Source: Nitrospirota bacterium
GTDB taxonomy: Bacteria > Nitrospirota > Thermodesulfovibrionia > Thermodesulfovibrionales > Dissulfurispiraceae
Length of the DNA: 64,000 bases
Assembly (NCBI GenBank): GCA_963790025.1
Contig: CAWBMP010000005.1
Span: forward strand, 256,001-320,000
Direction: 5' to 3'
This document shows positions 10,078 through 64,000 of the stretch, one piece after another (the first letter of the stretch is position 1; each line of letters begins with the position of its first letter). The translations under genes were made by a program, and so were the position numbers. The notes beneath the pieces were generated by a model. That model saw only the letters and a list, made by a program, of their open reading frames with translations, was not told the DNA's origin and searched no databases.

Positions 10078-10107
10078 TTGACAGTGAACAATCGTTCACC
10101 TTATAAT
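10078..10107 (+). promoter_or_regulatory. Consensus sigma-70 promoter with a LexA operator in the spacer
   Basis: TTGACA (10078) - 18 nt - TATAAT (10102); the spacer holds the palindrome GTGAAC-aatc-GTTCAC (10084-10099). Confidence 0.85.
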
Positions 10108-10113
10108 GCAGAT

Positions 10114-10707
10114 ATGCCGGGAAATGCAGAGGAAGACAAGGTGCGGGGCAGGATCAGAGATATAGCTGTTTTCTTGGACAAAAACGGCAGGATGCCGAGT
10201 TTCTCTGAAATCGGGGTGATAGTAGGGCTGCGCTCAAAAAACGCGGTTTTTAAACTTGTGAACACGCTGGAACAAAAGGGAGTGATAAAAAGAGATCCCA
10301 AAGGGCGTCTCATACCACGCTCTATTGGTGAGCCGGTAAGGGTACTCGGCACGGTGGAAGCAGGGTTCCCGAGTCCTGCCGAAGAGGAGCTTGCAGATAC
10401 CCTGTCGCTCGATGCACTCCTGATACAAAACCCCCAGGCCACTTTTCTGCTCAAGGTATCCGGAGACTCCATGTCCGGGGCAGGCATACTCCCCGGCGAT
10501 ATGGTGATCGTTGATAAGGGACAGGTCCCCAGGAGTGGAGATATCGTTATTGCGGAAGTTGACGGCCAATGGACCATGAAGTATCTTAAAAAAAGGGGAG
10601 ACAACGTGAGCCTTATACCGGCAAATCCCGACTATAAACCCATAAAGCCAAAAAGTGAATTGAAAATAGCTGGTGTCGTAACAGCGGTAGTTAGAAAATA
10701 TAGGTAG
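10114..10707 (+). CDS. lexA: LexA-family repressor/S24 peptidase with a UmuD-like cleavage region
   Basis: N-terminal winged HTH (MPSFSEIG...SKNAV), VEAGFPSPA cleavage loop, GDSM serine, TMK lysine. Confidence 0.85.
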   Translation: MPGNAEEDKVRGRIRDIAVFLDKNGRMPSFSEIGVIVGLRSKNAVFKLVNTLEQKGVIKRDPKGRLIPRSIGEPVRVLGTVEAGFPSPAEEELADTLSLDALLIQNPQATFLLKVSGDSMSGAGILPGDMVIVDKGQVPRSGDIVIAEVDGQWTMKYLKKRGDNVSLIPANPDYKPIKPKSELKIAGVVTAVVRKYR

Positions 10708-10713
10708 ATAATG

Positions 10714-10893
10714 AGTGTAATGAGGATATGTCTCTTCCGCTCAGGCGCTGCGTCTTGACAGTTCTAACGGCTCATTCGCTACAGTCGCAAAACTCGCCTT
10801 CGGCTCAGACACTGCGACTGCTTAACGCTCATTTCGCCGAGAACTGTTACCAAGACTCCGCGATTCGCTCCAGAGACATATCCTCATTACACT
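10714..10893. repeat. 180-bp palindromic element (MITE/REP-like)
   Basis: 22-bp perfect terminal IR AGTGTAATGAGGATATGTCTCT / AGAGACATATCCTCATTACACT with nested internal stems. Confidence 0.75.
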
Positions 10894-10914
10894 GTCTGAA
10901 TTGGAGATAACGCG

Positions 10915-14183: not shown

Positions 14184-16784
14184 TTACAGTGTGTAATTAC
14201 TTTCCAGGAAACGGCCGGCATAATACTTGACCTTGGCATCATCGTGCAGGATCGCATCGAGTTGCCTTGTATAAGAAATCAACCGGCCCAGCTTGTCAAG
14301 TTTATTTTCCTGCTCAGAACGTTCTATATTGGCGAGCCTTCCAATAATCAGATCTCCCTTCGTTTTTATATTAAAACCGTACTCTTTCAAAATAATAGAA
14401 ATAAGCTCTATCCTCCTGGACCTTTTTACGATTTCGGTAGCTCCTCCGGCAAACCGGAAGTATATATGATTGTTTCTTGCCTTTTCGCTGCAATAGCAAT
14501 CTATTGTGCTGAAATGATATCCGAACTTGAGATTCATGTTGAGGTATTCCTGGGAGATAACGGCAATATTGCTTCCTGGATACCTGGCGTTACCTGAAGC
14601 AATATCAGGCATTCGCATCATGCTTGCCATAAAATCGTTTGCCGTCAAAGCAACCGGTGATGATTGCCATGCCCCCGGGTACATCATCCCCTGTAGAATA
14701 GCTTTAAAGGGAATTGAAACAACCTGTTCGAAAGTAACGCTTTCGCTCCTGTCATAGTGACCCGCGCTGCTATCCAACCCTCCGCCGATATCCACTACGA
14801 TTATTCCGGCAGGTATAGGCAGGTCCAATTTCCTTGCCGCTTGTCCTTTGAGTCCCCGCACGGCATTGTCTATGAGTTCCATCACTGCTTTCTCATGTAT
14901 GAACCTCAGGATATCATGCATGGTCTTACACCCTTCAGGCGCAAACTTTTCCATTAACGGGTCAATGAGATTAAGAGGAGTTATATACCTCAGCACATAT
15001 CTTTTCTTGCGAAATTCAAAGATATTTCCCATTGCCGGTTGGCCGGAGCGCGCGTATTCAACCATTTCGCGCAGTATCCCGTCATATACAGTCATACCAT
15101 CTTCATCATCAATAATTACCGTAACCTCTTGTCCGTGCCTAAGCAGCTGTGTTGCGTTTCCAGAATTAACAAAAGCCGGGACCATGAATTCACGACAAAG
15201 GGAAGACATGTGGCTTGTAAGCGACCCCGTATCGGTAATAATTGCGGACGCATAAGGCATGATCCGTATAAAATCAGAGGAATCATTTTTTGCCACAAGG
15301 ATGTCGCCCTTTAAAAAGCCCTCGATTCCTTCCTTGTGTTTAAATATAAAAACCCTGCCGGCGCCCACACCTTTTTGAACAACCTGACTACGCGCTTTCA
15401 TCAGGATTCCGGCCCTTTCTTCCGGCCATTCCGGAGAAAGGGCCGGTGCAGGGGTCTTGTCAACAGATGCAATATTTAATGGCCTCGCCTGAAGTATAAA
15501 TATTTTCCCTTCCCTGTCAATGGCCCATTCAATATCCTGAGGTTGCCGGAAATAGTTTTCAATTTCCGAGGCCTGTCTCGCAAGTTCCGATACCTGTTCC
15601 GAAGATAATGAACTTTCATCAACCATCCCGGCAGGGACCCCCGTTATGGTTGTACCACCCTGGTTGCCGCCCACGACCATCGAGGTCTTTTTACCCGGTC
15701 TTTTATCTATTATTTCAGGGAACAAACCTTTTCTTACAACGTAAAAGTCCGCATCTGTCCGGCCTTCAACTACTGACGTGCCCAGTCCCCATGTTGAATT
15801 TACAATGATCGTACCTTCATCCCCATTCGGGTTCGTCGAATAAATAACCCCGCTCACAGCCGCATCGACCATGACCATGCAACCAACCGCCATCTTTATG
15901 CTTCCTATCTCACTTCCCAGTTGCTGAAGATATGCAGCGGCTTTATCCGAAAACAGGCTTGCGATGACGCGCTTATACGCGTCCTGTACTGCACTGCCGT
16001 CCAAAGGCACATTCAGGACAGTTTCAAACTGTCCGGCAAACGAAAATTCGCCGTCCTCCAGCTGACCGCTGCTCCTGACAGCAAGAAAACATGTATTTCC
16101 GTGGGTCGCCCTGAGCACTGACAGGGCACTATCAAGAACGTGTTCAAGGACAGGCGGAAAACTGCCGTTAATGATCGAAGTGTATATTTCATTTAATAAC
16201 GGCGCAGGCGTGTCGCTTCCGCCCAATGCCGAAATCTTTTTGTCGATGCCATTATGCCTTATAAACTCATTGTAAGCGGAGCATGTTATGGCAAAGGCAT
16301 CAGGGATGTTGAGGGAAGTATTATTTTTCAGTTCAGCGAGATTGGCATTTTTGCCGCCGACCTCATGCGCCATGCTATGGGCAAGCTCACTATAAGGCAG
16401 CACCAATTCCCTTCTCAAGACTTCCTCATCGTAAACATGCAGCCTGATTTCTTTATCGATGGCACTCAATACATTTTTGAGATGAGGATACTTATTCTGT
16501 GTGAGGGCATTGAAGCTTGAGAGAGAATCCGAGAGCTTATCATACAGCAAGGAGTAGGTGTCCCTTATATAAATCACATCGAATATGTAGTCGCCCCCGA
16601 GTTTGTCGCCCATATCAGCGATAATCTCAATCGCCTTATTATGGGATTCGAGGACCTGCCGGAAACGGTCGAACATGACCTTGAACGGGATAGGGCGGGC
16701 GGGGAATAGTTTCCGTAGTGAATCTGTAAATGAGTGTATTAGCGAATGAGTTAACTTCAGGTCAGCGTTTTGTTTCTCACTCAT
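14184..16784 (-). CDS. PEP-synthase-like dikinase: ATP-grasp plus phospho-His swivel domain, non-canonical C-terminus
   Basis: VGGKNANLAEL, AVRSSG..ED...SFAGQF, QDIEWA, LQARPL, TGSLTSHMSSLCRE; no recognisable PEP/pyruvate TIM barrel. Confidence 0.85.
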   Translation of the reverse strand: MSEKQNADLKLTHSLIHSFTDSLRKLFPARPIPFKVMFDRFRQVLESHNKAIEIIADMGDKLGGDYIFDVIYIRDTYSLLYDKLSDSLSSFNALTQNKYPHLKNVLSAIDKEIRLHVYDEEVLRRELVLPYSELAHSMAHEVGGKNANLAELKNNTSLNIPDAFAITCSAYNEFIRHNGIDKKISALGGSDTPAPLLNEIYTSIINGSFPPVLEHVLDSALSVLRATHGNTCFLAVRSSGQLEDGEFSFAGQFETVLNVPLDGSAVQDAYKRVIASLFSDKAAAYLQQLGSEIGSIKMAVGCMVMVDAAVSGVIYSTNPNGDEGTIIVNSTWGLGTSVVEGRTDADFYVVRKGLFPEIIDKRPGKKTSMVVGGNQGGTTITGVPAGMVDESSLSSEQVSELARQASEIENYFRQPQDIEWAIDREGKIFILQARPLNIASVDKTPAPALSPEWPEERAGILMKARSQVVQKGVGAGRVFIFKHKEGIEGFLKGDILVAKNDSSDFIRIMPYASAIITDTGSLTSHMSSLCREFMVPAFVNSGNATQLLRHGQEVTVIIDDEDGMTVYDGILREMVEYARSGQPAMGNIFEFRKKRYVLRYITPLNLIDPLMEKFAPEGCKTMHDILRFIHEKAVMELIDNAVRGLKGQAARKLDLPIPAGIIVVDIGGGLDSSAGHYDRSESVTFEQVVSIPFKAILQGMMYPGAWQSSPVALTANDFMASMMRMPDIASGNARYPGSNIAVISQEYLNMNLKFGYHFSTIDCYCSEKARNNHIYFRFAGGATEIVKRSRRIELISIILKEYGFNIKTKGDLIIGRLANIERSEQENKLDKLGRLISYTRQLDAILHDDAKVKYYAGRFLESNYTL

Positions 16785-21642: not shown

Positions 21643-21730
21643 AGTATATAAAGCCCAGAAACTTCATTATTATAAATTATAGCCATATTAATAATAAAAT
21701 TTTTTCTCTTCCGGGCAAGGCTCCATATTT

Positions 21731-23374
21731 TTAGCCGCTCTCATCGGTCCTGAACACCACCTTTTTCCATAAACGGGCCGGTTTGCCATAATCAGGTATT
21801 ATAAGTTCCATGTCTCCATAGCAGTAGGGGTACTGCTTTCTTATTTTCTCGGCTGGGATGTGCCAATAGAAACCATCAGCAATAAGAGCCAATCCAACCA
21901 CTATCAATAATATGTTGAATATCGTCCACGCGATATTGCCGGCACCGAAATAAACAAGGAGTTCCGTTCCTACCGCAGATACGCCTACCCCGGTTCTGAC
22001 CAGCGCCAGACCGGTCCTTGACCGGGTCATTACCGTTCGCAGCCTTAACATTACGTTTCTCCTGTCGGCAAGCATAGTCCTCTCAAGAGCAAGGCCCGTA
22101 GTAGCCCAGATCCCCGGCTCACTGGACGGCCTGACGTTCAGAACGCACTTGTAGTCAGAACCTGGTTGCTTTAGCGCATGAGGAAAGGCAAGGTCCCATA
22201 TATTCTGTTTACCCTCTGATTTGCGGACCGACTTGAAGCTCATCGAACCGGCACGGCGGCCCGGAAAATACCAGTAAAAGCCCTCTGCCGCCATTGCGAG
22301 GCCCACAGCGACAAGCGCTGCATCAAAAAAAGTCCAGGGACCGGGACGGAACTGGCGTAATAGCGCAATGCCGAACCCGATAAAGACAATTCCAGTCCTT
22401 GCAAATGCCAACCCTGTGCGCGCCCTCGCCATTGTTGTCCATAAGCACACGTGCGTCGTCCTTTCCTCGGCAAAATCGGTCCTGTCGCTCGAAAAAAACC
22501 TGCGCCGCATTACCGGAGACAGATTGTTCCATCGGGAACGCAACAACGCCGCACCTTCCACGTGACCTGTTCGTGTAAAAAGAGGGTCGTCACCGGGGTC
22601 CGTCATTTTAAGGACAGTAGTTCCCCAAGTCGGTTCAGTTGCAGTAAAATCAAAAACTCTTCTCCCTGTTTTTCGTGCGGGGATATACCATAAAAGGCCG
22701 TCATAAATCATGAGTATGCCCGAAATGAACAATGCCCCTTCAAAAAAAACCGAAAGCCCCATACCGAAAACCCTGAAAAGAACAACCGCGATGGCCATAA
22801 AAGCCATACCGGTGCGTATAAAGGCCAGTCCGGTCCTCCCTTTTGCCAGGGACGTCCTGGTACAAGTCATCAAAGAGCGCCTGTCAGCCAGAAATGTCCT
22901 CACTTTCGCCAGAGGCGTCCTGCCGGCTGAGAATGGGAAATGAGGATTCACATCAAAGTTGTGTTCGATAATCCGAATAAGGTCCGAAGGCAGAGCAACA
23001 ATAAAATTGACCTCCCGAACTCCAAGTGTGGCTTCGACATCCTCCATGACATCAGGGTCGAAAGGATGACACGCAATAACCTCGGCACGGCCTTTGCTGA
23101 CGGCGAGAGGAAACCAGAGATTTCGTTTGAGTTTCTCCATATTGAGACGCCTGGTGAGAAAAAAAGAGGCGATGACGCTCTCATCATATTCGACAAAAGG
23201 ACAACTATAGAACTCAGTCAGCGAGAACAATATCTCGTGTTTCGGGACACCCCTTTCAATCAGCCATTCTTCAAGAAGCCTACCTGCCGCTGCGGACTCT
23301 CTGATATTTTCATCCAATTCCTTTTCGGTGAGAATACCATTTTTTAAAAGTCTCTCGAATTTGTTTTTTAACAT
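21731..23374 (-). CDS. GspE/MshE-N-like domain plus three DUF202-like repeats, membrane protein (close paralog of 19936..21642)
   Basis: Colinear with and highly similar to the adjacent gene over its whole length. Confidence 0.78.
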   Translation of the reverse strand: MLKNKFERLLKNGILTEKELDENIRESAAAGRLLEEWLIERGVPKHEILFSLTEFYSCPFVEYDESVIASFFLTRRLNMEKLKRNLWFPLAVSKGRAEVIACHPFDPDVMEDVEATLGVREVNFIVALPSDLIRIIEHNFDVNPHFPFSAGRTPLAKVRTFLADRRSLMTCTRTSLAKGRTGLAFIRTGMAFMAIAVVLFRVFGMGLSVFFEGALFISGILMIYDGLLWYIPARKTGRRVFDFTATEPTWGTTVLKMTDPGDDPLFTRTGHVEGAALLRSRWNNLSPVMRRRFFSSDRTDFAEERTTHVCLWTTMARARTGLAFARTGIVFIGFGIALLRQFRPGPWTFFDAALVAVGLAMAAEGFYWYFPGRRAGSMSFKSVRKSEGKQNIWDLAFPHALKQPGSDYKCVLNVRPSSEPGIWATTGLALERTMLADRRNVMLRLRTVMTRSRTGLALVRTGVGVSAVGTELLVYFGAGNIAWTIFNILLIVVGLALIADGFYWHIPAEKIRKQYPYCYGDMELIIPDYGKPARLWKKVVFRTDESG

Positions 23375-48910: not shown

Positions 48911-48986
48911 GGGCGGATAGCTCAGCTGGGAGAGCGCAGCCCTTACAAGGCTGATGTCACAGGTTCGATCCCTGTTCCGCCTACCA
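48911..48986 (+). tRNA. tRNA-Val(TAC)
   Basis: Cloverleaf; anticodon arm CAGCC-ctTACaa-GGCTG; GGTTCGATCC T-loop; CCA end. Confidence 0.97.
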
Positions 48987-49059
48987 TATTACAGTGATCA
49001 TTGATGAAAGATCAGTGAACAGAAAGTAAAACGTGATTTTCTCTCACGGCTTTTAGATT

Positions 49060-49136
49060 GGGGTGGTAGTTCAGCTGGTTAGAACGCCTGCCTGTCACGC
49101 AGGAGGTCGCGGGTTCGAGCCCCGTCCGCCCCGCCA
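49060..49136 (+). tRNA. tRNA-Asp(GTC)
   Basis: Cloverleaf; CCTGC-ctGTCac-GCAGG; GGTTCGAGCC T-loop; CCA end. Confidence 0.97.
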
Positions 49137-49391
49137 GTTTCTTTAAATTACATCTATTTGATTTATAAGGGTTTGTAGTGATACAAGCCCTTATTTTTTG
49201 GCCCAAAACACCCCTATTTTGGGTGCAGTAATGGTGCAGTAAACGGGAAAATGGTTCTTTTTTGGGTTCCTTTCCCACGTGCCGGAATGTCTTGAAATTT
49301 CTGCTCTCTTAATCAAGACTCCATGTAAACTATGTCATACTCTTTTTTGCAAATTAGAAATAATATTTCTATAATGTAAAATGAAGGAAAT

Positions 49392-50324
49392 GGGGTCAGG
49401 TCTATAATGTTTTACATGTTCATGATGAATCTGATAAATTGGCTGTTATGGCTCGACCGTTGCGCATACAATATCCTGGCGCTGTATATCATGTTACTTC
49501 TCGTGGAAACGAGAAGAAGTCAATTTTCAGGGATGACGCTGACCGTGAAACATTCCTTGGGATTCTTGTCGATATCAATAGACGGTACAATTGGCTATGC
49601 CATGCCTACTGTCTGATGGATAACCATTATCATTTGATGATTGAAACGCCGGATGGAAATCTGTCCATAGGGATGAGGCAATTAAACAGTGTCTACACCC
49701 AGGCTTACAACAAAAAGCGCAACCGATCAGGTCATCTGTTGCAGGGTAGATATAAGGCTATTGTGATCCAGAAAGACAGTCATCTTCTTGAAGTGTGCCG
49801 ATATGTTGTGCTGAATCCGGTACGTGCGCACATAGTTGAACAGCCTGAAGATTGGAAATGGTCCAGCTACGGGGAAACCGCAGGAAAGAAAACGCCTCAT
49901 CCGTGTCTTACCACTGACTGGATACTAGGGCAATTCAGCGAGGAAAGGAGTGAGGCAGAAAGAAAATACCGTGAGTTTGTGAAATCAGGCATCGAACAAG
50001 AAAGTATTTGGAATGCTGTTAAGGGCCAGGTAGTTCTCGGAAAAGAAGAATTCGTTGATAGCCTGAATCATCATCTCAATAAACATAAGAATATTGCCGA
50101 AATATCCAAAACGCAACGGTATGTCAACAGACCCGGGTTGGATAGCATATTCAGCAAAAACATATTAATGGATAAAAGTCAGAGGGACAGCAAAATAATT
50201 ACTGCTGTCTACGAATTTGGATATACTCAGCGGGCAATCGCAAATCATCTCAATTTGCATTTTACATATATAAGCCGGGTTGTTCGAGGGCATGCAAAAA
50301 GGTAAATATTATAGACCTGACCCC
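49392..50324 (+). mobile_element. Element bounded by 17-bp inverted repeats, carrying an HUH Y1 (RAYT-like) transposase
   Basis: GGGGTCAGGTCTATAAT (49392-49408) and ATTATAGACCTGACCCC (50308-50324). Confidence 0.75.
49448..50305 (+). CDS. REP-associated/IS200-like tyrosine transposase with C-terminal HTH
   Basis: YHVTSRGN, CLMDNHYHL (HUH), RYVVLNPVRA, WKWSSY; C-terminal YTQRAIANHL HTH. Confidence 0.9.
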   Translation: MARPLRIQYPGAVYHVTSRGNEKKSIFRDDADRETFLGILVDINRRYNWLCHAYCLMDNHYHLMIETPDGNLSIGMRQLNSVYTQAYNKKRNRSGHLLQGRYKAIVIQKDSHLLEVCRYVVLNPVRAHIVEQPEDWKWSSYGETAGKKTPHPCLTTDWILGQFSEERSEAERKYREFVKSGIEQESIWNAVKGQVVLGKEEFVDSLNHHLNKHKNIAEISKTQRYVNRPGLDSIFSKNILMDKSQRDSKIITAVYEFGYTQRAIANHLNLHFTYISRVVRGHAKR

Positions 50325-53066: not shown

Positions 53067-54698
53067 ATGCTATCGACACGAAAACTTACGGAGTTGCCGT
53101 CATGGAAGGCGCTCGAAGACCACTACCGGAAGATTCAGGGCGTCCACCTTCGGGAACTATTTGCCGGCGATTTGCAGCGTGGCGAGCGATTCGCTGTCGA
53201 AGCATCCGGCATTTACCTTGATTACTCCAAGAACCGCATCACAGGTGAAACCCTTCGGCTTCTTTTCCAACTCGCTGAGGAGTGCGGTCTGCGCGAACGG
53301 ATCGATGCGATGTTCCGCGGAGAGGAAATTAATATTACCGAGAAACGTGCTGTGCTTCATATAGCTCTGCGTGCACCCCGGAATCAGTCGATCTTTGTTG
53401 ACGGTGAAAACGTGGTGACCAAGGTTTACAAGGTACTTGACAGGATGGAGGATTTCGTCAATCGCGTCAGGAGCGGAGAGTGGAAGGGACATACCGGCAA
53501 GCGTCTCCGCAATGTCGTAAACATTGGTATTGGTGGCTCTGACCTGGGTCCGGCCATGGCTTACGAAGCGCTGAAGCATTACAGCTCGCGCGATATGATT
53601 TTTCGTTTCGTTTCGAACGTGGACGGAACGGATTTTACCGAAGCGACGCTCGACCTCGATCCGGCAGAGACCCTTTTTATCGTGTCATCGAAGACTTTTA
53701 CAACCCTGGAGACGATGACGAACGCACACACTGCCCGTCGGTGGACGCTGCAGGCGCTGGGTGACGAGCGTGCCGTAGCGCGGCACTTCGTTGCCGTCTC
53801 AACCAATGCCGAAGAGGTGGCAAAGTTCGGCATTGACACCGCGAATATGTTCGGGTTCTGGGACTGGGTCGGTGGTCGCTACTCGATGGATTCAGCCATC
53901 GGGCTTTCGACCATGATCGCTGTCGGAGCCGAAAACTACCGGGCGATGCTCGCCGGTTTCCATGCTATTGACGAGCATTTCCGCACCGCGCCGTTCGAAG
54001 GGAACCTGCCGGTGCTAATGGGACTGCTCGCTGTTTGGTATAATAACTTCTTCGGTGCGCAGACTGTGGCCGTGCTGCCTTACGACCAGTACCTCAAACG
54101 TTTCCCGGCCTACCTCCAGCAGTTGACGATGGAGAGCAACGGCAAGCACTCAACGATAGACGGCTCACACGTCGATTACGAAACAGGCCCTATCTTATGG
54201 GGAGAGCCGGGCACCAATGGCCAGCATTCATTCTATCAGCTTGTCCACCAGGGGACGAAGCTTGTTCCTTGCGACTTCATCGGCTTTTGCAGAACGCTGA
54301 ATCCTGTGGGCAAGCATCACGATGTGCTTATTGCTAATCTTTTGGCGCAAACCGAGGCTTTGGCATTCGGCAAGACGGAAGATGAGGTCAGGGCGGAGGG
54401 AACACCGGAGTGGCTGGCTCCCCACCGCGTCTTTGAGGGCAACCGTCCTTCGAATACTATTCTCTGCGAGAAGCTGACGCCGGAGATGCTCGGTAAACTT
54501 GTTGCGCTTTATGAGCATAGTGTATTCACTCAGGGAACGATTTGGCTTATTGATTCCTTTGACCAGTGGGGGGTTGAGTTGGGCAAGGTCCTGGCGCAAA
54601 GAATCATTCCGGAACTTGAAAGCGCCGATGAGCCGCAGGCCGGGCACGATAGTTCGACCAACGCTCTTATGCGTCGCTACCGCAGGCTTAAAAAATGA
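53067..54698 (+). CDS. pgi: Glucose-6-phosphate isomerase
   Basis: [39 protein letters not shown]. Confidence 0.97.
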
Positions 54699-57244
54699 GT
54701 GAATCAAAACGAGTCAGCAGTCCCATACACCGATTTCTTCCCTTTGAGGTCGATGGCTTCGATTCTCTTGTAGAGCTTGCCATGGACCTGCGCTTGTCGT
54801 GGGACCATCAGGCCGGCGAGGTATGGCAGCAACTCGATGCGGTGCTCTGGGACCTGACGCAGAACCCATGGGTCGTTCTTCAGACCGTCTCCAGGGACCG
54901 ACTTCAGCGCGTGTTGGATGATGCCACCTTCCGTAAGAAAGTCGATGACCTTTTGCAGGCAAAAAGTGAAGCGGCAGAATCGCCTTCCTGGTTTTCGCAA
55001 AATCATTCGGGTACCCAATTGAACAGCGTCGCTTATTTCAGTATGGAATTCATGTTGAGCGAGGCACTCCCGATCTATTCGGGTGGACTTGGTAATGTAG
55101 CCGGAGACCAGCTGAAGGCTGCAAGCGATCTGGGAGTTCCGGTAATCGGCGTGGGGCTCCTCTATCAACAGGGCTATTTCAGACAGGTAATAGACAGAAA
55201 TGGAATGCAACAGGCCCTCTTTCCCTATAATGATCCCGGTCAATTGCCTATTACGCCTTTGCGTGAGCCCGACGGAGAGTGGCTGCGTTTGAAAGTTGCG
55301 CTTCCCGGTTACTCCATGTGGCTGCGTGCCTGGCAAGTTCAGATAGGTAGAGTGAAGCTCTACCTTCTGGACAGCAATGATCCGGCGAACTTCCCGGCCC
55401 ACAGAGGAATTACAAGCGAGCTATATGGAGGCGGGCCTGAGCTGCGCCTTCTGCAGGAGCTGACACTAGGTATCGGAGGGTGGCGGCTGCTCAACATGCT
55501 CGGCATCAAACCCGATGTCTGCCATCTGAATGAAGGACATGCTGCTTTTGCGGTATTGGAGCGTGCCCGGTTTTTTATGCTGGAGACAGGGCAACCTTTC
55601 GAAGTTGCACTTGCCGTTACTCGTGCCGGCAACCTTTTCACTACCCATACAGCGGTCGCCGCAGGTTTTGATCGCTTTTCTCCTTCCCTTATGGAGCAAT
55701 ATCTCGGCAGATACGCCGGTGATAGGCTGGGCATCCCGTTCCATGACCTATTGGCCCTGGGCCGCCAGAACCCCAATGACTCCACGGAATACTTCAATGT
55801 GGCCTATCTCGCCCTGCGAGGGAGCGGGGCGGTCAACGGGGTGAGCCGATTACACGGACAAGTCAGTCGACGCATCTTTCAGCCCCTCTTTCAACCTTGG
55901 CCGGAGGTCGAAGTGCCGGTCGGGCATGTTACTAACGGGGTCCATATGCCGACCTGGAATTCAGAGGAGATCGAAGTACTTTGGACAGGGGCCTGTGGAA
56001 AAGAGCCCTGGATGGGTACCGTGGAAACCCTGGAAGAGAACATCCGTAACGTTTCCGATTTTATGCTCTGGAATTGCCGCACATCCGCCCGTGAGTCTCT
56101 GATCAAGTACATGCGGGAACGGTGGTCCCGGCAGGTGGCTGTATCGGGAGGGACGCATGAAGAGATTGAAAATGCCAGAAATATATTCGATTTCAACACA
56201 TTGACACTGGGCTTTGCCCGCCGTTTTGCGACCTACAAGAGGCCTAATCTGCTGCTGCATGATCCTGAACGGTTCCTTCGCATACTCTGCGATTCTCAAC
56301 GTCCCGTGCAGCTTGTCATTGCGGGCAAAGCGCACCCTGACGATCACCAGGGACAGGCCATGATTCAGCAATGGACCCAGTTCATTCGCCGGCCTGAAGC
56401 GCGCAATCATGTAGTGTTTATCAGCGACTACGATATGTTGTTGACCGAACGTATGGTGCAGGGCGTGGATGTCTGGGTCAATACACCGCGGAGGCCCTGG
56501 GAAGCATGCGGAACGAGCGGCATGAAGGTGCTTGTCAATGGAGGAATTAATCTTTCAGAACTTGATGGCTGGTGGGCTGAGGCCTGGTCGCCGGAAGTCG
56601 GGTGGGCCTTGGGTGACGGGAAGGAGCATGGTGATGACCCTGCCTGGGATGCTGTCGAAGCTGAGGCACTCTACACTTTGCTCGAACAAAATGTGGTCCC
56701 CGAATTTTACTCGCGTGATCAAAACGGCATCCCTGCCGCCTGGGTAACGCGAATACGTGAGAGTATGGCCCGGCTGACGCCGCGTTTTTCCGCCAACCGG
56801 GCTGTCATAGAATATACCGAGCACTACTACATTCCTGCTGCCGAGGCATACCGCGAGCGTGCCTCGGGAAAATGCGCTGAGGGTGCTCAGATAGTGGAGT
56901 GGCAGCATAATCTGGCACAGAAATGGACCAATCTGCGCTTTGGGGAAATTAAAATTGAAACTGACCCGGAACGGCACTTGTTTGATATCCAGGTGTATCT
57001 AAACGGCCTCGATCCCGACTCTGTTCGAATAGAGCTTTACGCGGACGGCTTGGACGGCGGCGACCCCGAGAAGCAGGAGATGATGCGCGGTAAGCAACTC
57101 GTCGGCGCAGAGAATGGCTATACTTACAGCGCGATGGTGCCGGCGACCCGACCGGCTGCAGATTATACAGCGCGGGCGCTGCCTTACCATCCCTGCGTTG
57201 CGGTGCCACTGGAAGCTGATCAAATCCTGTGGCAGCGGTGGTGA
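54695..57244 (+). CDS. glgP: Alpha-glucan (glycogen/maltodextrin) phosphorylase
   Basis: [30 protein letters not shown] (PLP lysine). Confidence 0.96.
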
Positions 57245-57250
57245 GAGTAT

Positions 57251-58543
57251 TTACTTGTCTCTTGATGTCATAAGCAATATGCCTTGTCCCGGTCGCAGGT
57301 CGTACGAGAATGGCGATGGTACATAGTCGAGAGCATATTCCGGAGAGATATCGAGTATTGGAGCGCCCGCCTGAAGATATCCCTGAAGTGACTCTGTATG
57401 GAAATATTGCTTGTTGTAATTGTCTTTATTCAGAATTAAGAGTGATTCTTCATTTGTATAACCTGATGCCTTCCACATAAGCAGAATACCCGGGTTGTCA
57501 TAATGCAGCACAGTTGTGGGGGCCTCCTCCTGGAATACTGGATGACCTGACTTTGCCTTGTTGACGCTTGCTATGAAAGAAGTCAGATCAATGCCTGTTT
57601 CTTCCCAATCTTCAGGTCTGGTTTTTACCACGTGCAACTTCTTGCGGAAGCCGAATTCGAACCCCATCGGCATCATAACGCCGCATGAAAACAGGGCAGA
57701 GAACAGATAGCGTTGTTTGAGCCCTTCGATATTTCCGCCCAATTCTTCGCAGAGCCTGACCGTATCGTGGCTCTCGGGGAAGCTGACGGAAGGGGCTATT
57801 TCCCGTGTAAGGACATATTGTTCCATCAACCATGGGTTGTTGAAGTCCCACCATTTTGAACTGTTGAAAATATAATCGAAACCGGCGGCGGCGGTTTTTC
57901 GTGTCAGGTCGGGCGGGCATCCGAGTGTTTCCGCGAAAAAAAGTGTGTCGGGATATTTTTTCTTTGTTTCGGTGATGAGTCTTTTCCATAGACTTCCGGG
58001 CAGTTGATACGCAGCATCGCACCGGAATCCTTTAAAGCCCAGATCGGAAAGAAAACATATCACGCTGAAAAAGTATTGATAGAGTCCTTCTTTATCTTTT
58101 GTATTTACGTGGTCAAACCTGGCCAGGTCTTTCCAGACCACTTTTTTACCGTCTTCATCTGCAAAGGGATGAGCAATTCGTCCGTCGGCTTCCCAAAGAA
58201 ACCATCCCGGGTGTGATTTTATAAGGTCCGAATCCGTGGAACAATGGTTGATCACCAGGTCCACCATCACCTTCAGCCCGAGTTGTTCTGCAGCCCGGAC
58301 CATATCTTTCACCTGCTCCTGGGGTTTCTTTTCACTTTCAGAGTCAATGAACAGCGGATTGAAATCAAGATAATCCGCTATAGAGTAAAGACTCCCCGAA
58401 GTCCCCACACGCTGGATGGGATTGACAAAAATCCAGTTGAAGCCCATTTCGGATGCCCTCAAAAAATGACTGCCCCAGCCGGTAAACTTTCCTGCCAGCA
58501 GGGGGAAGAGGTTATAGATGATCATTATTTCGGGTTTTTTCAC
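57251..58543 (-). CDS. GH13 alpha-amylase-family enzyme, cytoplasmic
   Basis: DLVINH, GFRCDAA, FAETL, ESHDT catalytic regions; no signal peptide; GTG start overlaps the upstream stop. Confidence 0.88.
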   Translation of the reverse strand: MKKPEIMIIYNLFPLLAGKFTGWGSHFLRASEMGFNWIFVNPIQRVGTSGSLYSIADYLDFNPLFIDSESEKKPQEQVKDMVRAAEQLGLKVMVDLVINHCSTDSDLIKSHPGWFLWEADGRIAHPFADEDGKKVVWKDLARFDHVNTKDKEGLYQYFFSVICFLSDLGFKGFRCDAAYQLPGSLWKRLITETKKKYPDTLFFAETLGCPPDLTRKTAAAGFDYIFNSSKWWDFNNPWLMEQYVLTREIAPSVSFPESHDTVRLCEELGGNIEGLKQRYLFSALFSCGVMMPMGFEFGFRKKLHVVKTRPEDWEETGIDLTSFIASVNKAKSGHPVFQEEAPTTVLHYDNPGILLMWKASGYTNEESLLILNKDNYNKQYFHTESLQGYLQAGAPILDISPEYALDYVPSPFSYDLRPGQGILLMTSRDK

Positions 58544-59607
58544 TGTTTGTTCTCCTTTTTACATGCTTCCAGTACGAGTTGGTGGTTATCACTAAGAACA
58601 GAAAGCCATAAATTCATCCGTTCGGCATTTCTCCTGTTCCTCCAGTGATGAAAGAGGTAAGAGGCGTTTCCGAGCTGGAGCATGCCTTCGGTCGGATGAA
58701 TTTCCAATGAGAAGGAAATGTGGTCCGGACCGGGGAGTTTCATGGATTCTGCGATAACCCTTGAAAGTCCACGCGGTCCGAACATGAGGTCGAGATGCCT
58801 TGCACTCCCGTATTCAAATGGTAACATAATTTTATTCAGAAAACTGAGGTGGTCACTTACGCCAAAAGGGCTGAAGGTCGAGAGCGGGTGTGCATCATGC
58901 AGATGGTAATGCACAGGTTTGCCCAGGCTCCCGACCTCCCGGACCACGCGCAGAACTTCAGCAGGCGAAGCGGCGACCGCCTCCTGAACATCTTTTATTA
59001 CTTCCCGAAGTCCGGGATCTTGGGGCTTCAAAGCACAAACATCTCTTCCCGGGTATTTGCGTGAGTAGATGCGGCTTGCCTGCCAAAGGCCAATATGTCC
59101 TATATCGATGCAACTGCTGATGCGCTCAAGGTCACTTGCTGCCCTGAAAAGTGTTATGAAGATATCAGTCTCAAGCCCTGCAGCGTATTCGATAAAAAGA
59201 TAGGGACTCCCCTTGATATCCTGCAGACGGGATTCCATCTCCTGCAGGACAGTCAAATAATTGTCAAAGCGCGCGGCGATTTCGTTTTGATCATGAATAA
59301 TCAATCCCAGCACCCGGTTTTTGAAGTTTTTCGCAAAATCGAGGACCAGCCTTCGACCGCTTTCCTCGAAGAGGTTGATCCATCTGGGCAAATGCACGGC
59401 AGACGGTGCTTCAGGAGTCGGCTTGAACCCCAAAAGCCGCTCCAGCTCATACGGCGTTTCGGCGTAGAACTCGGGTCCCAGCCCTGCCTCTTTAAATCGC
59501 AGGGAGGCGAGCTGCAAAAGAGCGTCATCGCCGTCAATTCTTTTTTGAAAAAGCCCCAGAACAGGAGGGCAAGTGCTGGGCCCTCGACTGGACAAGATAG
59601 ATTCCAT
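58540..59607 (-). CDS. Hypothetical xylose-isomerase-like TIM-barrel protein
   Basis: Metal-ligand-like motifs FIEY, CIDIGH, HYHLHD, SLEIH. Confidence 0.6.
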   Translation of the reverse strand: MESILSSRGPSTCPPVLGLFQKRIDGDDALLQLASLRFKEAGLGPEFYAETPYELERLLGFKPTPEAPSAVHLPRWINLFEESGRRLVLDFAKNFKNRVLGLIIHDQNEIAARFDNYLTVLQEMESRLQDIKGSPYLFIEYAAGLETDIFITLFRAASDLERISSCIDIGHIGLWQASRIYSRKYPGRDVCALKPQDPGLREVIKDVQEAVAASPAEVLRVVREVGSLGKPVHYHLHDAHPLSTFSPFGVSDHLSFLNKIMLPFEYGSARHLDLMFGPRGLSRVIAESMKLPGPDHISFSLEIHPTEGMLQLGNASYLFHHWRNRRNAERMNLWLSVLSDNHQLVLEACKKENKQ

Positions 59608-62600
59608 CTCCTGAAATTACCCCCTCGATATCCTGTGGACCGCTTAACGCATTTTCCACAAACTTTCCGACTGTCCCCAAACGTCCGACTGTGAGATTTC
59701 TGAAGGACCTGTCCATCGACATCCTGATGCCTGTATAATCGATGGTTTCAGCTGTTATCCCGCCGGAAGGACCGGGCAGCAAGGCATGACTGAAACTTGC
59801 AAAGGACAGCATCCTCACCTCTCCTGTTTCTTTATAGCAGACCGCACGGTAAGGACTGCCTGGAGTCGCAGCTGAAGCCAATGTTTCGCCCAGACCGACT
59901 GCCAGCTCTATATAAATCTCTCCAGGATCACAACTTACCGGATTGCGGGTATTCATGATAAATGAAAGTTCCGGAACGAGCATCTTCTGGATGAGTACAG
60001 CCATTACCGCTCTTTCGTGCTGAATGCCGGTGTTTCTTCTGTTCATGACCGCACGTACGTTCCATAGCGAGGCCCAGACCTTGAGTATTGCAGGAGCAAC
60101 ATCCGAAGGCTGAACATTGGCAACGGAATCGTAGAGTCCGGCCCCGGACGAAACTCTCATGTCTTCACAGTTGGCACTGGAACGGACAATCAACCTATCC
60201 GGCAGCCGTTCATCCCGCGTAAATTCTTTCAAAACTCCGGAAACGATTTCAGCCGGGACCGGAAGGTGATTTATGATGTCCTGCAGTCTTGTCAAAGCAC
60301 CGGCCAGGTCGCTTTGCCTCAGCCTGTTCAAGTTGCCGACCAGTGCCTTGTACTCTCTTTCAAGAGCAGGTTTCGCAGAGAGGCATGTCTCCATCACTCC
60401 AAAGGGAATTACAATTCCCGCTGCTGTTTTAAGTCCGGCATGCTCAAGCCTCGACATTTCTTCGAGCCTGCGCGCCGAGTCAGCTTTTCCGCCCCCGTTT
60501 TCCGGAGTGACCTCTTTAAGAGGCAGTAATTTGACTGCGGAGTTCAAAATTACGTGAGGCGGTTCAATAGGATACGTATTGATGGGAGCTGCAGTAATGC
60601 CGGAAGAAATTTTCAGGCTGACACTTTCCGTAAAGGCATCCAGAGTAACCAATTGACCGGCGAGACCTGTTAACTCCGAAAAAAGCCCCCTGTCCTCGCA
60701 TGCTGCGAATACGACATGGCTTTGACGGGCACGGACGGCAAGGTGAGCAAGATGGGGGATTCCATGAGCAACTATAATACCGGCTATCCATGCCGGAATT
60801 TCCTCATCGCCTTCTGCTCTTTCCAGAAGTGCCACGAACGGTCCGTTATGGCCATCCGATAAATTCCCAAGGCCGCCGGCAGCTACCAGGCGTCCTGAGG
60901 CTTTTCCAGGCACTATTATGTCCCAGGAGGGAAGATTTGCGAGTGTCCGAATACTTTTTCGAAGAAGATCGACGAGTTTTGACACCTGAAAGACAATGTG
61001 GCCCCTGATGTCGGCCTCTCCGAAAACTTTTATTGCATGCCCGGCCACGTCAAGTGCGCGGCCCAGCCTTTCGGCTTTTTCAGGGAAGAGAGATAGAATC
61101 TTATGACAATAATCTTCCGCTAAACGCGAGTATCTGTCGAGCGTGGCTTTGAGACGGATCAATTCCTCATGTAATTCTTCACGGTCAGCGGGGATAAGCT
61201 TTTCAGACCAGCTCTTTAGTTCTGATTCTATGGCCCGGCACTCTTCAGGGTCCAAGCCGCTGAGTCGCAAATTCCGTATAGCCTGCACTAACGAGGATAA
61301 AGCCAATTTCCTGTCCTTAAGAACATCGAAATGATCGCTTAAACGGCCTGCGAGGCGGCTCAGGATGACAAAAGAAAAATCCTCCAGCCCGATGTCCGCC
61401 ATGAGAAACTTCTGCGCCTTAGTTTCGTCTTGAAGTTTCTGCATTTCGCAGAATTGGCCGCGAAGTCCTGTTAAAAGCTCCAACACGGTCAACATTTTTT
61501 GTGGAGTGTCTATCTCCTTTTTGGCCCTGAGAAATGCACTTATAGAATCTGCCGGACCGAGATCGATCTCCTTCTCTATTGCGCTGAGTCGTTCATCGAG
61601 AGTAGCGGCATTGAAAAATTCTTTGAGTTCGCTATGAAAGCGCTTGAATTCCTCAACAAAGGCAGGTGAATAATCGGCGTCAGGGGCGGTTATTTTTGTC
61701 AGCAGGCCTTTGGAAGTGGCAAGGTCTTCCGGACCGGCTGAACGGTGCAGTTTGTTCTGGAGCGTATCTTTGATCTCCTTTTTCAATTCTCCGGGAATGT
61801 CGTTTCTGTGGGCGATGTCCCTTATGCGTGTGAGGGGTTCGGCCCTGGTGAATGCGCTGTCGAAAGAAGGCAGCCACGGGTAAATTTTTCTTATGATAAA
61901 AAAGTTTTCGGGGGTTATTATGTTAGAGAGCCTCCCGTATATCTGCTGCGCCATCTTTGCGTGATGCCAAGGCCGGTGATGCCCACCTTCCTCGCCGCAA
62001 GGGACTTCACCTGTGCCGATAAAACGAAGATAGATAGCTATATAAAGGAGATGTTCGATGTTCAGATCGAAGGTATCGCAGGTCAAAACATCATAAACCC
62101 AGCCGAGCCTGTTCTGCCAACTCAGGAACCTGCGGTTTGCAGCAACGATTTCATTTACAAAATCATCAGAGGCAGGAGTAAAGGCAGAAGTGAAGGCAGA
62201 AGCAGAAGCGGAAGTAGAGGTAGAGGAAGAGTTGGAGTTGATTATTTCGATAAGTCTGGTACGTGCCTCATTGAGCAGGCCTTCCGGCTGCGGCCATTGT
62301 TCGAGGATAATACTTCCCGAAAAGTTGCGTTTGTTCATCCGCTCCATAAAACCGGTTATGCCCGCAGCGTCTTTTCCCGCAGGGCCTGTGAAAATGGGCA
62401 GGTGACTGTCACAGTCCCCGTAGTTTTCGTGCATGTGTATATGAATGACAGGTACTTCCGGATCGAGCAGATCGACAAACTTGAGATAGTCGTTACGGGT
62501 CGCATAATATAAGTTTGCATGACCGAGATCCAGGCACATTCCCACATTGCCGGTCCTTTCCAAACTGCGAAGACTCCTGAACAGTTCATTGAAATCTTGT

Positions 62601-63040
62601 GGCCCGGTATACAAAGTGTTTTCAATTGAGAGTTGGATCCCGGCCTTTGCAAGGCGTTTCCCCAGTGGAGCGATCGCGTCCGCGAAGGCGGCAACCCCTT
62701 TGTCGTTATAAAAATGAATGTTGATAAGCGTTGCACCGATGTCCTGTGCGAACCCGATAGTTTTGGAGATGAGTTTGCCGGCATCTGATATGACAGGATT
62801 TGACTGCAGTGAAGCATGCACAGAGAGTCTGATATCACCAGCGAGAGCTGTGTCCCTTATGAAAATACGTGTTTCTTTGGATATGTCGCTTTCTTCCCAG
62901 CCCGCCCCAGATTCATTTTTGTCCGGAAACCATTCAAAGGCGTCAAACCTGTTAGCCATGGCATATTCGAAAGGCAGCATCAGGGAAGGCGCATGTCGGG
63001 ATGTTTGATTACCGATACGCACCCGCGCTGTTTCAATCAT
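59534..63040 (-). CDS. Phosphoglucan,water dikinase-like protein with N-terminal TIM-barrel domain
   Basis: GGHHRP, LPSF...PLTRIRDIAHRNDIP..LK.EIK.TLQNKLHR.AGPEDL, phospho-His PHLAHLAVRARQ, VRSSANCED...GAGLYDS, QDIEG...VQSR; start at 63040 overlaps the upstream stop. Confidence 0.88.
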   Translation of the reverse strand: MIETARVRIGNQTSRHAPSLMLPFEYAMANRFDAFEWFPDKNESGAGWEESDISKETRIFIRDTALAGDIRLSVHASLQSNPVISDAGKLISKTIGFAQDIGATLINIHFYNDKGVAAFADAIAPLGKRLAKAGIQLSIENTLYTGPQDFNELFRSLRSLERTGNVGMCLDLGHANLYYATRNDYLKFVDLLDPEVPVIHIHMHENYGDCDSHLPIFTGPAGKDAAGITGFMERMNKRNFSGSIILEQWPQPEGLLNEARTRLIEIINSNSSSTSTSASASAFTSAFTPASDDFVNEIVAANRRFLSWQNRLGWVYDVLTCDTFDLNIEHLLYIAIYLRFIGTGEVPCGEEGGHHRPWHHAKMAQQIYGRLSNIITPENFFIIRKIYPWLPSFDSAFTRAEPLTRIRDIAHRNDIPGELKKEIKDTLQNKLHRSAGPEDLATSKGLLTKITAPDADYSPAFVEEFKRFHSELKEFFNAATLDERLSAIEKEIDLGPADSISAFLRAKKEIDTPQKMLTVLELLTGLRGQFCEMQKLQDETKAQKFLMADIGLEDFSFVILSRLAGRLSDHFDVLKDRKLALSSLVQAIRNLRLSGLDPEECRAIESELKSWSEKLIPADREELHEELIRLKATLDRYSRLAEDYCHKILSLFPEKAERLGRALDVAGHAIKVFGEADIRGHIVFQVSKLVDLLRKSIRTLANLPSWDIIVPGKASGRLVAAGGLGNLSDGHNGPFVALLERAEGDEEIPAWIAGIIVAHGIPHLAHLAVRARQSHVVFAACEDRGLFSELTGLAGQLVTLDAFTESVSLKISSGITAAPINTYPIEPPHVILNSAVKLLPLKEVTPENGGGKADSARRLEEMSRLEHAGLKTAAGIVIPFGVMETCLSAKPALEREYKALVGNLNRLRQSDLAGALTRLQDIINHLPVPAEIVSGVLKEFTRDERLPDRLIVRSSANCEDMRVSSGAGLYDSVANVQPSDVAPAILKVWASLWNVRAVMNRRNTGIQHERAVMAVLIQKMLVPELSFIMNTRNPVSCDPGEIYIELAVGLGETLASAATPGSPYRAVCYKETGEVRMLSFASFSHALLPGPSGGITAETIDYTGIRMSMDRSFRNLTVGRLGTVGKFVENALSGPQDIEGVISGDGIYLVQSRAQHLPSCSGAFSKKN

Positions 63041-64000
63041 TTTCAAGACCGGTCTGGGGACGTGATTGCACGACATAATATTGCCCGTTCGAGTAGGCCC
63101 CCTCGATATCCTGCGGGCCACCGAGGGCCTTTTCAACAGATGTGCCGATACCGGCAATCTTTATCAGAAACTCGTTCCGGAAATTAGCGTCCCATACAAG
63201 TGCCTCTTCTGCGTAATCCAGCGTGACTTTAACAGGCTGCGGCAGCATGAAGCTGTCGTAAAGACCCGCACCGGCGTAACCGGCAAGGTCCTCGCCATTT
63301 GAATCCGAACGGAAGATCAGGCCGCCCCCCGAGCACTCAAATAGCTTGCCGGTTGCGTGTTGAATGCCCGGTAAACAGGAATAGAGACCGACACTCTTGC
63401 CCGGCAATGACAGCAGGTGCGGCCCCTGATTCCCCTTTTTGCAGACGAAGCTCAAGGCCCTTCCGGGGTAGTTTGCAACCAGTGCCTCCCCGAGTCCCAG
63501 GACAACTTCAGCATAAACTTCGTCGTTAGCGTTAGTGAAAGGGTTCACAGTATGAATCACAAAACTATAATCAGCTTCAACTATCCTCTGGATAAGGACA
63601 GCCATCATTAGGTCCTTATGAGGGACACCGCTTGCCTTACGGCTTAAGTACGCCCTTTCATTCCACTTCGAGCCCCAAACGCGCTTGATGCAGGTCCAGG
63701 CGTCATCCTGTCCTTCCTGCCGGCTTTCCGGTCCACTTTCCGGCAATCCGAGTCCGGCATTTTCCATCACTGTGCGAAGCGAGGAACTGAATTCATCAGG
63801 GGCCTCAAGGGCCAGTATTATTTTTTTTATTTCTTCCAGTAAAGCGGTATACGACATTGCCGTTTCTTCATTTAGCCGCCGTGCCAGCTCATCATGCTGT
63901 CCAGCGAGTTCTTTATTGACGGGATCGCTGAGGACCTTGTCAAAAACCCCAAAAGGCAAGGCTGCCGAAGCAGGGAGGTGTATCCAATCCGGCAGTTTGC
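63033..64000 (-). CDS. Alpha-glucan,water dikinase (GWD/R1)-like protein, C-terminal part; N-terminus beyond the window
   Basis: ALPFGVFDKVLSD, AWTCIKRVWGSKWNERAY, ADYSFVIHT.NP, YPGRALSF.CKK, IFRSDSNGEDLAGYAGAGLYDS. Confidence 0.88.
   Translation of the reverse strand, partial: KLPDWIHLPASAALPFGVFDKVLSDPVNKELAGQHDELARRLNEETAMSYTALLEEIKKIILALEAPDEFSSSLRTVMENAGLGLPESGPESRQEGQDDAWTCIKRVWGSKWNERAYLSRKASGVPHKDLMMAVLIQRIVEADYSFVIHTVNPFTNANDEVYAEVVLGLGEALVANYPGRALSFVCKKGNQGPHLLSLPGKSVGLYSCLPGIQHATGKLFECSGGGLIFRSDSNGEDLAGYAGAGLYDSFMLPQPVKVTLDYAEEALVWDANFRNEFLIKIAGIGTSVEKALGGPQDIEGAYSNGQYYVVQSRPQTGLEND

Follow-up and report, generated by a model that had tools for sequence, protein, structure and literature searches.

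We describe a conserved bacterial four-gene operon which probably serves the ATP-dependent phosphorylation of the cell's own alpha-glucan. It was recognized at the end of a 64,000-nucleotide stretch of a Nitrospirota genome (family Dissulfurispiraceae, assembly GCA_963790025.1, contig CAWBMP010000005.1, positions 256,001 to 320,000), which is called the window below and whose numbering is used for all coordinates. Two of the genes encode dikinases related to the starch-phosphorylating enzymes of plants, glucan,water dikinase (GWD) and phosphoglucan,water dikinase (PWD); the third encodes a divergent TIM barrel, another TIM barrel being fused to the PWD-like dikinase itself, and the fourth a protein of the alpha-amylase family GH13. 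Dikinase activity is assigned to the bacterial members by analogy with the plant enzymes, and we infer which substrate is phosphorylated (glucan), at which positions (C6 and C3) and in which order, as well as what the TIM barrels do.

Organization of the operon

Both dikinase genes lie on the minus strand according to the list of open reading frames (ORFs) of the window. The GWD-family gene is present with its 3' part, the last 321 codons and the stop (63033..64000), as an ORF of 321 amino acids (63998..63033) which matches PPDK_N and whose 5' end is open at the window edge; the operon starts beyond the window end. It is followed by the PWD-like dikinase gene (59534..63040, defined by its ORF and Pfam domains), which encodes a fusion protein of 1168 amino acids, P0001. 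The overlap of the two genes at 63033-63040, reported in the initial annotation of this DNA, was confirmed by the ORF list and by the sequence: the upstream TGA (63035-63033) and the downstream ATG (63040) overlap by 8 nucleotides, which read ATGATTGA on the minus strand and TCAATCAT on the plus strand. The downstream ORF as such spans 59534..63157 and has an alternative TTG start at 63157, nevertheless the ATG at 63040 is favoured, since the conserved sequence of the relatives begins at residues 1-7.

The initial annotation had described a system of two dikinase genes. Both genes and their operon arrangement stood up to analysis, but the TIM barrel of P0001 and two further genes had been overlooked, and the unit comprises four genes with two putative TIM-barrel metalloproteins. 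The third gene (58540..59607, minus strand; identified by its ORF, hhalign and a structural model) encodes P0124, a divergent TIM barrel of 355 amino acids, and overlaps the end of the P0001 gene by 74 nucleotides. The fourth (57251..58543, minus strand) encodes P0125, 430 amino acids with a GH13 alpha-amylase-family catalytic domain (Pfam hDGE_amylase and Alpha-amylase), whose relatives in the PDB are amylases and GlgE; its GTG start and the stop codon before it share bases (GTGA). Rfam and tRNA scans gave no match in the operon region.

The upstream gene belongs to the GWD family

It is well supported by sequence comparison that the upstream gene encodes a member of the GWD family, not a phosphoenolpyruvate (PEP) synthase or a rifampicin phosphotransferase: the domain architecture, the full-length identity to wheat GWD1 and two phylogenetic trees agree in this respect, as the initial annotation had proposed. 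The window holds 321 of the 1065 residues of this protein, the C-terminal ones, which according to Pfam make up the ATP-grasp part only. The full-length protein of the same genome, P0278 (1065 amino acids), was retrieved by a homologue search with the L001 orthologue as query, and its C-terminus is letter-for-letter identical to the window's 321 residues; like P0001, it is encoded on a contig of 639,223 bases. In this way the N-terminus, whose recovery had been proposed earlier as a check, became available, and it carries a CBM45-like Ig domain. The stored Pfam domains of P0278 are PF23166, PF22973 and PF01326; in its orthologue P0122 (72% identical) the CBM45-type domain with which plant GWD1 begins, Ig_N_CWD1, was located at 45-154 (E 4e-26), GWD1_pHisD at 603-716 (E 2.5e-34), and PPDK_N in the C-terminal part.

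Between P0278 and wheat 'alpha-glucan water dikinase, chloroplastic' (P0463) the identity is 37% over 1083 amino acids (691 bits); with P0149, a protein of 1471 amino acids with two Ig_N_CWD1 domains and DUF7067, it is 38% over 1095 amino acids, in contrast to the 25% over 126 amino acids found with E. coli PpsA. The motifs that had been read in the upstream protein are indeed there (WGSKWNERAY, YPGRALSFVCKK and FRSDSNGEDLAGYAGAGLYDS), and the C-terminal FRSDSNGEDL.GYAGAGLYDS is common to P0278 and the plant proteins. In the alignments with wheat GWD1 and P0149, the P0278 His motif DVLSHLAVRARN is matched by DVLSHVSVRARN. The passages on GWD in PMC12892837 describe a conserved His of the phosphohistidine domain as essential in potato GWD, and one His of the P0278 motif presumably corresponds to it.

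The order of the domains (CBM45-like Ig domain, central region, phosphohistidine domain, ATP-grasp domain) is the same as in plant and algal GWD (GWD1/R1, GWD2; EC 2.7.9.4), to which P0278 is 37-38% identical over about 1090 amino acids with conservation of the His and C-terminal motifs. The differences concern mainly the N-terminal part and the genetic setting. With one CBM45-like domain and about 1065 amino acids P0278 resembles the short algal and Selaginella 'GWD2' type, whereas land-plant GWD1 has about 1400-1470 amino acids with two CBM45-like domains and DUF7067; many other bacterial GWD-like members have two CBM45-like domains and about 1160 amino acids. Unlike the plant enzymes, P0278 lacks a transit peptide and is the product of an operon gene, and its host bacterium is not known as a starch maker.

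Phylogeny of the dikinases

The first tree was built with FastTree from 160 rows and 1010 columns. It contained the two window proteins, 44 GWD-like ORFs of at least 950 amino acids taken from the loci described below, every fourth PWD-like ORF of 1100-1300 amino acids as outgroup (14 rows), and those 100 of 150 cluster representatives from the GWD-like search that had at least 900 amino acids. The second tree was made with IQ-TREE (short search, LG+G4) from 53 hand-picked rows and 1012 columns, and both trees are subject to warnings on long branches and composition. In the first tree the GWD side was split from the PWD-like rows with a support of 100. One clade of 75 rows (support 92) took in the window row and all the 44 GWD-like rows from the loci, and its sister was a clade of 23 rows (support 93); profile search found in the latter the green algae Chlorella, Coccomyxa and Volvox, the streptophyte algae Chara, Klebsormidium and Mesostigma, the Selaginella 'alpha-glucan water dikinase 2' and the cryptophytes Guillardia and Rhodomonas. 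In the second tree the pair of P0149 and wheat GWD1 had a support of 100, as did the clade of algae and cryptophytes; the bacterial clade was recovered with 96, the branching order among the four GWD clades being left without resolution. The PWD-like rows stood clearly apart from GWD in both trees (support 100).

Thus, the trees place the bacterial GWD-like proteins as one clade within the GWD family, and they are silent on the donor and the direction of transfer. The proposed check against PEP synthases and rifampicin phosphotransferases had the same outcome: the upstream protein falls with GWD. All of the 150 top-ranking representatives from the GWD-like search were of the GWD type. A protein of 2106 amino acids, P0241, in which an N-terminal alpha-amylase or isoamylase-type region is fused to a complete GWD, was placed in an unlabelled clade of long proteins in the 160-row tree.

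The downstream gene encodes a PWD-like dikinase

P0001 begins with a TIM barrel that carries a putative metal site; a central helical region comes next, followed by the phosphohistidine domain and finally the ATP-grasp domain. The TIM barrel (residues 32-258, 62267..62947, minus strand) was matched by PF01261 of the xylose-isomerase-like / AP endonuclease 2 superfamily with 75.6 bits against a cut-off of 31.1. The phosphohistidine domain (GWD1_pHisD, PF22973, E 1.6e-22) occupies residues 705-811 (60608..60928, minus strand), and the ATP-grasp domain (PPDK_N, PF01326, E 8.4e-37) residues 850-1155 (59576..60493, minus strand); the His domain therefore precedes the ATP-grasp domain, as the initial annotation had stated. 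The downstream motifs PLTRIRDIAHRNDIP, QNKLHRSAGPEDL and HLAVRARQ could likewise be found in P0001. His766 (codon 60743-60745) is invariant in 20 sequences and is the presumed phospho-acceptor; the motif around it aligns with DVLSHVSVRARN of wheat GWD1.

On the basis of these comparisons the downstream gene is a paralogous dikinase within the GWD/PWD superfamily. P0001 and P0278 are 26% identical (858-998 amino acids, E 4e-56), and since their alignment starts right after the TIM barrel of the former and the Ig domain of the latter, the TIM barrel occupies the place of the starch-binding module. The alignment with wheat GWD1 covers 608 amino acids (E 2e-51), that with PpsA 218 amino acids only (E 4e-10). 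Its assignment as PWD is plausible and comes from automatic names and from an ESM Atlas neighbour: many relatives of P0001 bear the IMG name 'phosphoglucan,water dikinase', and the nearest Atlas cluster (0.97) is from Streptophyta, with PPDK_N and GWD1_pHisD, and with CBM_20 in 12% of the members. Among the 120 PWD-like relatives listed, names, where given, were bacterial or IMG only. The VRSSANxED...AGLY(D/E)S motif of P0001 resembles that of Arabidopsis PWD.

Plant PWD (GWD3; EC 2.7.9.5) has the same order of phosphohistidine and ATP-grasp domains as P0001, but carries a CBM20 where P0001 has its N-terminal TIM barrel, and in some genomes, unlike in plants, the second TIM barrel is fused C-terminally to the PWD-like enzyme. 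A single N-terminal CBM20 is given for AtGWD3 in the relevant part of PMC6243121. The public names in the GWD/PWD family are inconsistent: two green algal proteins, P0404 (Trebouxia) and P0475 (Pleodorina), are called 'Phosphoglucan, water dikinase, chloroplastic' by NCBI, yet possess the CBM45-like PF23166; they turned up with the GWD2-like profile and were left unused as PWD references.

The two TIM barrels

In the fused TIM domain the residues H75, H109, E140, D171, H174, H200 and H202, and further H204, E205, D209, D211, H213 and E247, were invariant in 28 sequences. The model of the domain (pLDDT 86.9) has eight strand-helix units, and the invariant residues lie in strands 3-8 or a few residues past them, with the exception of D209, D211 and H213, which are in a low-confidence loop after strand 7. 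In the PDB, the profile of the domain matched MJ1311 (3wqo) with E 1.3e-11 and the endonuclease IV of M. tuberculosis with E 0.0023; Foldseek gave 3wqo (TM 0.68-0.73), the African swine fever virus AP endonuclease, UlaE, psicose epimerases and endonuclease IV, and all the Foldseek matches listed belong to the AP endonuclease 2 / xylose-isomerase-like superfamily. Epimerases and phosphoesterases both rank high, consequently the fold search does not separate phosphoesterase from epimerase chemistry. Nine metal ligands are counted in E. coli endonuclease IV (Nfo), namely H69, H109, E145, D179, H182, H216, D229, H231 and E261. In an hhalign comparison with this enzyme, of 72.8% probability only, six of these ligands coincided exactly with H75, H109, E140, D171, H174 and E247 of the fused domain; in the same alignment the other three ligands were 1-2 positions from the invariant H200, D209/D211 and H213.

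The free 355-residue protein had no Pfam or NCBIfam match, and searching the PDB with its sequence alone and with its profile gave nothing. It keeps an invariant His/Asp/Glu set parallel to that of the fused domain, its model is a barrel (pLDDT 91.7), and hhalign aligned it with the fused domain at 95% probability (E 4e-8), by which it is a remote homologue of the latter. Its weak fold matches were of the endonuclease-IV and xylose-isomerase types (TM 0.40-0.48 normalised to the query), and hhalign against endonuclease IV gave 9.7% probability only; the link to the superfamily is thus made through the fused TIM domain together with the weak fold matches.

According to PMC7733943, sugar isomerases belong to this superfamily, and so do two enzymes with phosphodiesterase activity, endonuclease IV and CbiR. 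Compared to endonuclease IV, CbiR, the ketose 3-epimerases and MJ1311, with which the PF01261 match is in common, the barrel is here fused to a dikinase. With SEX4, LSF2 and laforin, which have the dual-specificity phosphatase fold, the (beta/alpha)8 barrels have no sequence or fold kinship; the removal of glucan phosphate might hypothetically be a common role. For the two TIM barrels we regard a function as metal-dependent enzymes, with the phosphorylated glucan or a product of it as substrate, as the most likely one.

Distribution of the operon

The locus scan covered 185,579 species with one genome each; 157 stretches matched two search patterns and 144 were confirmed, and the counts, gene orders and fusions given here come from the best 80 of these 144. 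By record title these belong to Nitrospirota (31), Thermodesulfobacteriota (21), 'Myxococcota' (9, titled Deltaproteobacteria), Verrucomicrobiota (6), Pseudomonadota (3), Chloroflexota (2), Planctomycetota (2) and Acidobacteriota (1), with 5 unplaced, and nearly all of the carriers are metagenome-assembled genomes (MAGs). The closest relatives are from Nitrospirota (64-68% identity); the species of the window itself is absent from the scanned collection. Sequence searches found 913 database relatives of the PWD-like part at E <= 1e-3 among 8000 scored candidates, and 1318 of the GWD-like protein at the same threshold among 7999; the exhaustive search with the latter gave 5304 cluster representatives, 531 of them at E <= 1e-30. 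The dikinase operon is widespread and not unique to this genome, and with so many relatives, many of them named GWD or PWD in IMG, its novelty is lower than the initial annotation had claimed.

A GWD-like gene stands directly upstream of the start of the TIM/PWD-like gene in 41 of the 50 loci with more than 3.3 kb of upstream sequence. In 55 of 64 loci the 355-residue protein comes next, on its own or as part of a fusion, a count that misses L019, L071 and L073, which do have tblastn matches; GH13 was found downstream in 37 of 53. Fusion joins the 355-residue protein to the C-terminal end of the PWD-like enzyme in three loci (L026, L030 and L040), and to GH13 in seven (L009, L022, L027, L034, L035, L054 and L059).

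Some variants of the arrangement should also be mentioned. The TIM barrel, fused in the window, is a separate ORF of about 300 amino acids in six close Nitrospirota relatives (L002, L014, L017, L019, L028 and L060), and in L014, L028 and L060 about 1-6 kb of other DNA stands between it and the dikinase ORF. The operon of a Candidatus Anammoxibacter MAG (L058, 10001-23171) is split into two blocks about 2.3 kb apart, the one with the TIM/PWD-like gene and the 355-residue protein, the other with the GWD-like gene, a free TIM-barrel ORF of 268 amino acids and GH13. L063, which bears the title 'Desulfobacterota bacterium M19' and no MAG label, has the PWD-like gene and that of the 355-residue protein, but no GWD-like gene beside them. 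A contig of 3065 bases titled 'archaeon isolate' (L037) encodes a PWD-like protein 56-57% identical to that of the window; given the short contig, a binning error is more likely than an archaeal carrier.

Genomic context

An alpha-glucan phosphorylase gene (54695..57244, plus strand; DUF3417 and Phosphorylase domains, TIGR02094, 777 bits) is the convergent neighbour of the operon, and its start is overlapped by the gene of glucose-6-phosphate isomerase (PGI; 53067..54698, plus strand; PF00342, 747.8 bits). The convergent phosphorylase and PGI recur in L001 and L013, and both genes are also nearby in L026. The possibility of a chimeric contig, which the initial annotation had named as a danger to its proposal, was excluded by the recurrence of the gene order, including the convergent phosphorylase and PGI, in the independent Nitrospirota assemblies L001 and L013.

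The flanks of 20 loci were scanned with the 67 nearest of the 163 flanking ORFs within 7 kb. Glucan genes (GlgA, GlgB, GH57 branching enzyme, CBM48 amylase) were present in the flanks of 11 loci, and beside the operon in 13 of the 20 once L013 and L026 are counted. A glycogen or starch synthase flanks the operon in L042, L057 and L074 and, as a partial gene, in L063; GlgB does so in L015, L039 and L068, and CBM48 amylases in L068 and L076. A dual-specificity-type phosphatase was not seen among the 67 flanking ORFs or the window proteins scanned.

In six of the 20 loci a DUF4912 protein and then a GH57 branching enzyme (GH57 and BE_C domains) come right after GH13 (L015:16025-18819, L032:15866-18310, L035:15848-18322, L038:16069-18712, L042:15949-18355 and L076:16345-18754). 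These two genes, absent from the window, may be the fifth and sixth members of the operon in those six genomes.

Other features of the window lie at a distance from the operon. At 48911-50305 there are tRNA-Val, tRNA-Asp and then a 288-residue ORF with an IS200-like Y1 transposase domain; at 18744-23374 (minus strand) three consecutive genes have MshEN domains, two of them also DUF202; and at 10078-12231 (plus strand) a LexA-like repressor (Peptidase_S24) adjoins a Y-family DNA polymerase (IMS), as is typical of SOS mutagenesis genes.

Proposed mechanism and alternative explanations

We suggest that each dikinase would take the beta-phosphate of ATP onto its conserved His (His766 in P0001), setting free AMP and inorganic phosphate, and, by analogy with the plant enzymes, would then pass the phosphate from the His to a glucosyl hydroxyl. 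Phosphorylation would loosen the packed glucan chains, the GH13 enzyme of the operon and the neighbouring glucan phosphorylase could degrade the loosened chains, and PGI might channel the degradation product into glycolysis. The TIM barrels might remove the glucan phosphate.

Several observations weigh against this model. The substrate had been proposed earlier to be the organism's own storage glucan: the neighbourhood indeed points to an alpha-glucan, but no glycogen synthesis genes were present among the window proteins, and no glucan gene was seen in the flanks of 7 of the 20 scanned loci. Pfam detected no CBM20 or other recognised starch-binding module in P0001, and as regards its orthology with PWD, the trees compare the PWD-like rows with GWD and not with eukaryotic PWD. 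In 9 of the 50 loci no GWD-like gene adjoins the PWD-like one, so that a strict two-step coupling is not universal. Finally, 3wqo, the closest solved relative of the fused TIM barrel, is titled 'D-tagatose 3-epimerase-like protein'.

Some of these points would also suit a different explanation, in which the downstream enzyme is a third kind of glucan dikinase instead of a C3-specific, C6-dependent PWD, and forms with both TIM barrels a self-sufficient module for another position or for glucan in another state, for instance soluble glycogen or maltodextrin. The catalytic-looking TIM barrel in place of CBM20, the nine loci in which the PWD-like gene and the 355-residue TIM barrel occur apart from an adjacent GWD-like gene, the three loci in which this barrel is fused to the PWD-like C-terminus, and the origin of the PWD label in automatic names and the Atlas neighbour only are all in its favour. 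We consider it rather unlikely, since in the large majority of the loci the GWD-like gene is immediately upstream, in the window even overlapping, and the nearest Atlas cluster is a plant one that includes CBM20-bearing members; moreover, the GWD-like gene may sit elsewhere in the genome, as in L058, where it is 3.8 kb downstream.

The kinship with starch dikinases might also be superficial, and the proteins be relatives of PEP synthase, PPDK or rifampicin phosphotransferase (Rph) acting on a small molecule. The best NCBIfam names for P0001 are in fact rifamycin phosphotransferase and PEP synthase, the PDB sequence matches of its dikinase part are PEP synthase chains only (no GWD or PWD structure was found by the PDB sequence searches), and some relatives are named 'Phosphoenolpyruvate synthase' by NCBI. 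Nevertheless, the similarity of P0001 to models and PDB chains of PEP synthase or Rph is limited to the ATP-grasp domain: the NCBIfam matches are confined to residues ~850-1155 and stay far under the curated cut-offs (119.5 bits against 999 for rifamycin phosphotransferase, 100.3 against 598 for PpsA). PpsA, PPDK and Rph have the ATP-grasp domain PF01326, and presumably the phosphohistidine swivel chemistry, in common with the two dikinases, but the identity is 25-29% over 126-218 amino acids, the domain order is reversed, and a PEP-utilizers or PEP/pyruvate-binding domain is missing. The window itself offers an example of the order that is canonical for PEP synthase and rifampicin phosphotransferase, PPDK_N and then PEP-utilizers, in a protein of 866 amino acids encoded at 14184..16784 (minus strand). 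The unusual domain order claimed for the downstream protein held true. As GWD-specific Pfam domains are matched, P0278 resembles wheat GWD1 in its full length and the neighbours are glucan genes, this explanation is largely refuted and very improbable. Eukaryotic, namely algal, DNA mis-assembled or mis-binned into a bacterial contig could be thought of as well, because the family is otherwise known from eukaryotes and the sister of the bacterial GWD clade is algal and cryptophyte. It has a negligible probability: the genes are intron-free with overlapping start and stop codons, the G+C content is even across the window, the flanking genes are bacterial (LolA, FtsK, RNase J, TsaB, L,D-transpeptidase), and the nearest eukaryotic identity is just 33-38%. 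The same order and convergent neighbours appear in independent assemblies, contigs of 0.69-1.9 Mb included, and algal contamination was ruled out by this synteny.

Significance for starch and glycogen biology

The view that GWD and PWD are hallmarks of eukaryotes with semicrystalline starch, on which the initial annotation relied, accords with current papers. In the sections concerned, both the preprint 10.64898/2026.09.25.754361 and PMC13666283 present glucan phosphorylation by GWD and PWD as eukaryotic, and list some cyanobacteria, Clostridia and some Verrucomicrobia as prokaryotes with starch-like material; the text of PMC13666283 on this topic treats glucan phosphorylation under plants, algae and protists, and animals, and calls the glycogen-phosphorylating mechanism unknown. 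Our literature searches on bacterial GWD and PWD found no paper describing them, and the supplementary GWD trees of the preprint may include bacterial sequences. The proteins themselves are already public under automatic GWD and PWD names; what was not found in the literature is their interpretation.

The portions of the 2026 review PMC12892837 on structure present GWD and PWD as enzymes without a high-resolution structure. The compact bacterial homologues, of about 1060 amino acids and free of transit peptides, may suit structure work better.

The operon is of real interest for starch and glycogen biology, and the system is larger than the initial annotation had seen, the two metal-site TIM barrels making it odder as well. 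A conserved bacterial operon with both dikinase types, set among glycogen genes, raises three questions that can be put to the test: do certain bacteria phosphorylate the glucan that they store, and is this glucan starch-like; how did the dikinases move between bacteria and eukaryotes; and what removes the phosphate where a laforin- or SEX4-type phosphatase is absent? A joint answer can be offered tentatively, as a possibility of rather low probability: the operon would be a self-contained, reversible glucan-phosphorylation machine, in which the endonuclease-IV-like TIM barrels are a new class of glucan phosphoesterases and the stored glucan is starch-like, with a bearing on origins. If so, the two dikinases would write the phosphate and the TIM barrels would erase it, replacing the unrelated SEX4, LSF2 and laforin; the carriers, among them Nitrospirota, Desulfobacterota and Verrucomicrobiota, would store a packed, starch-like glucan; and the bacterial clade would bear on the source or the destination of the eukaryotic starch dikinases.

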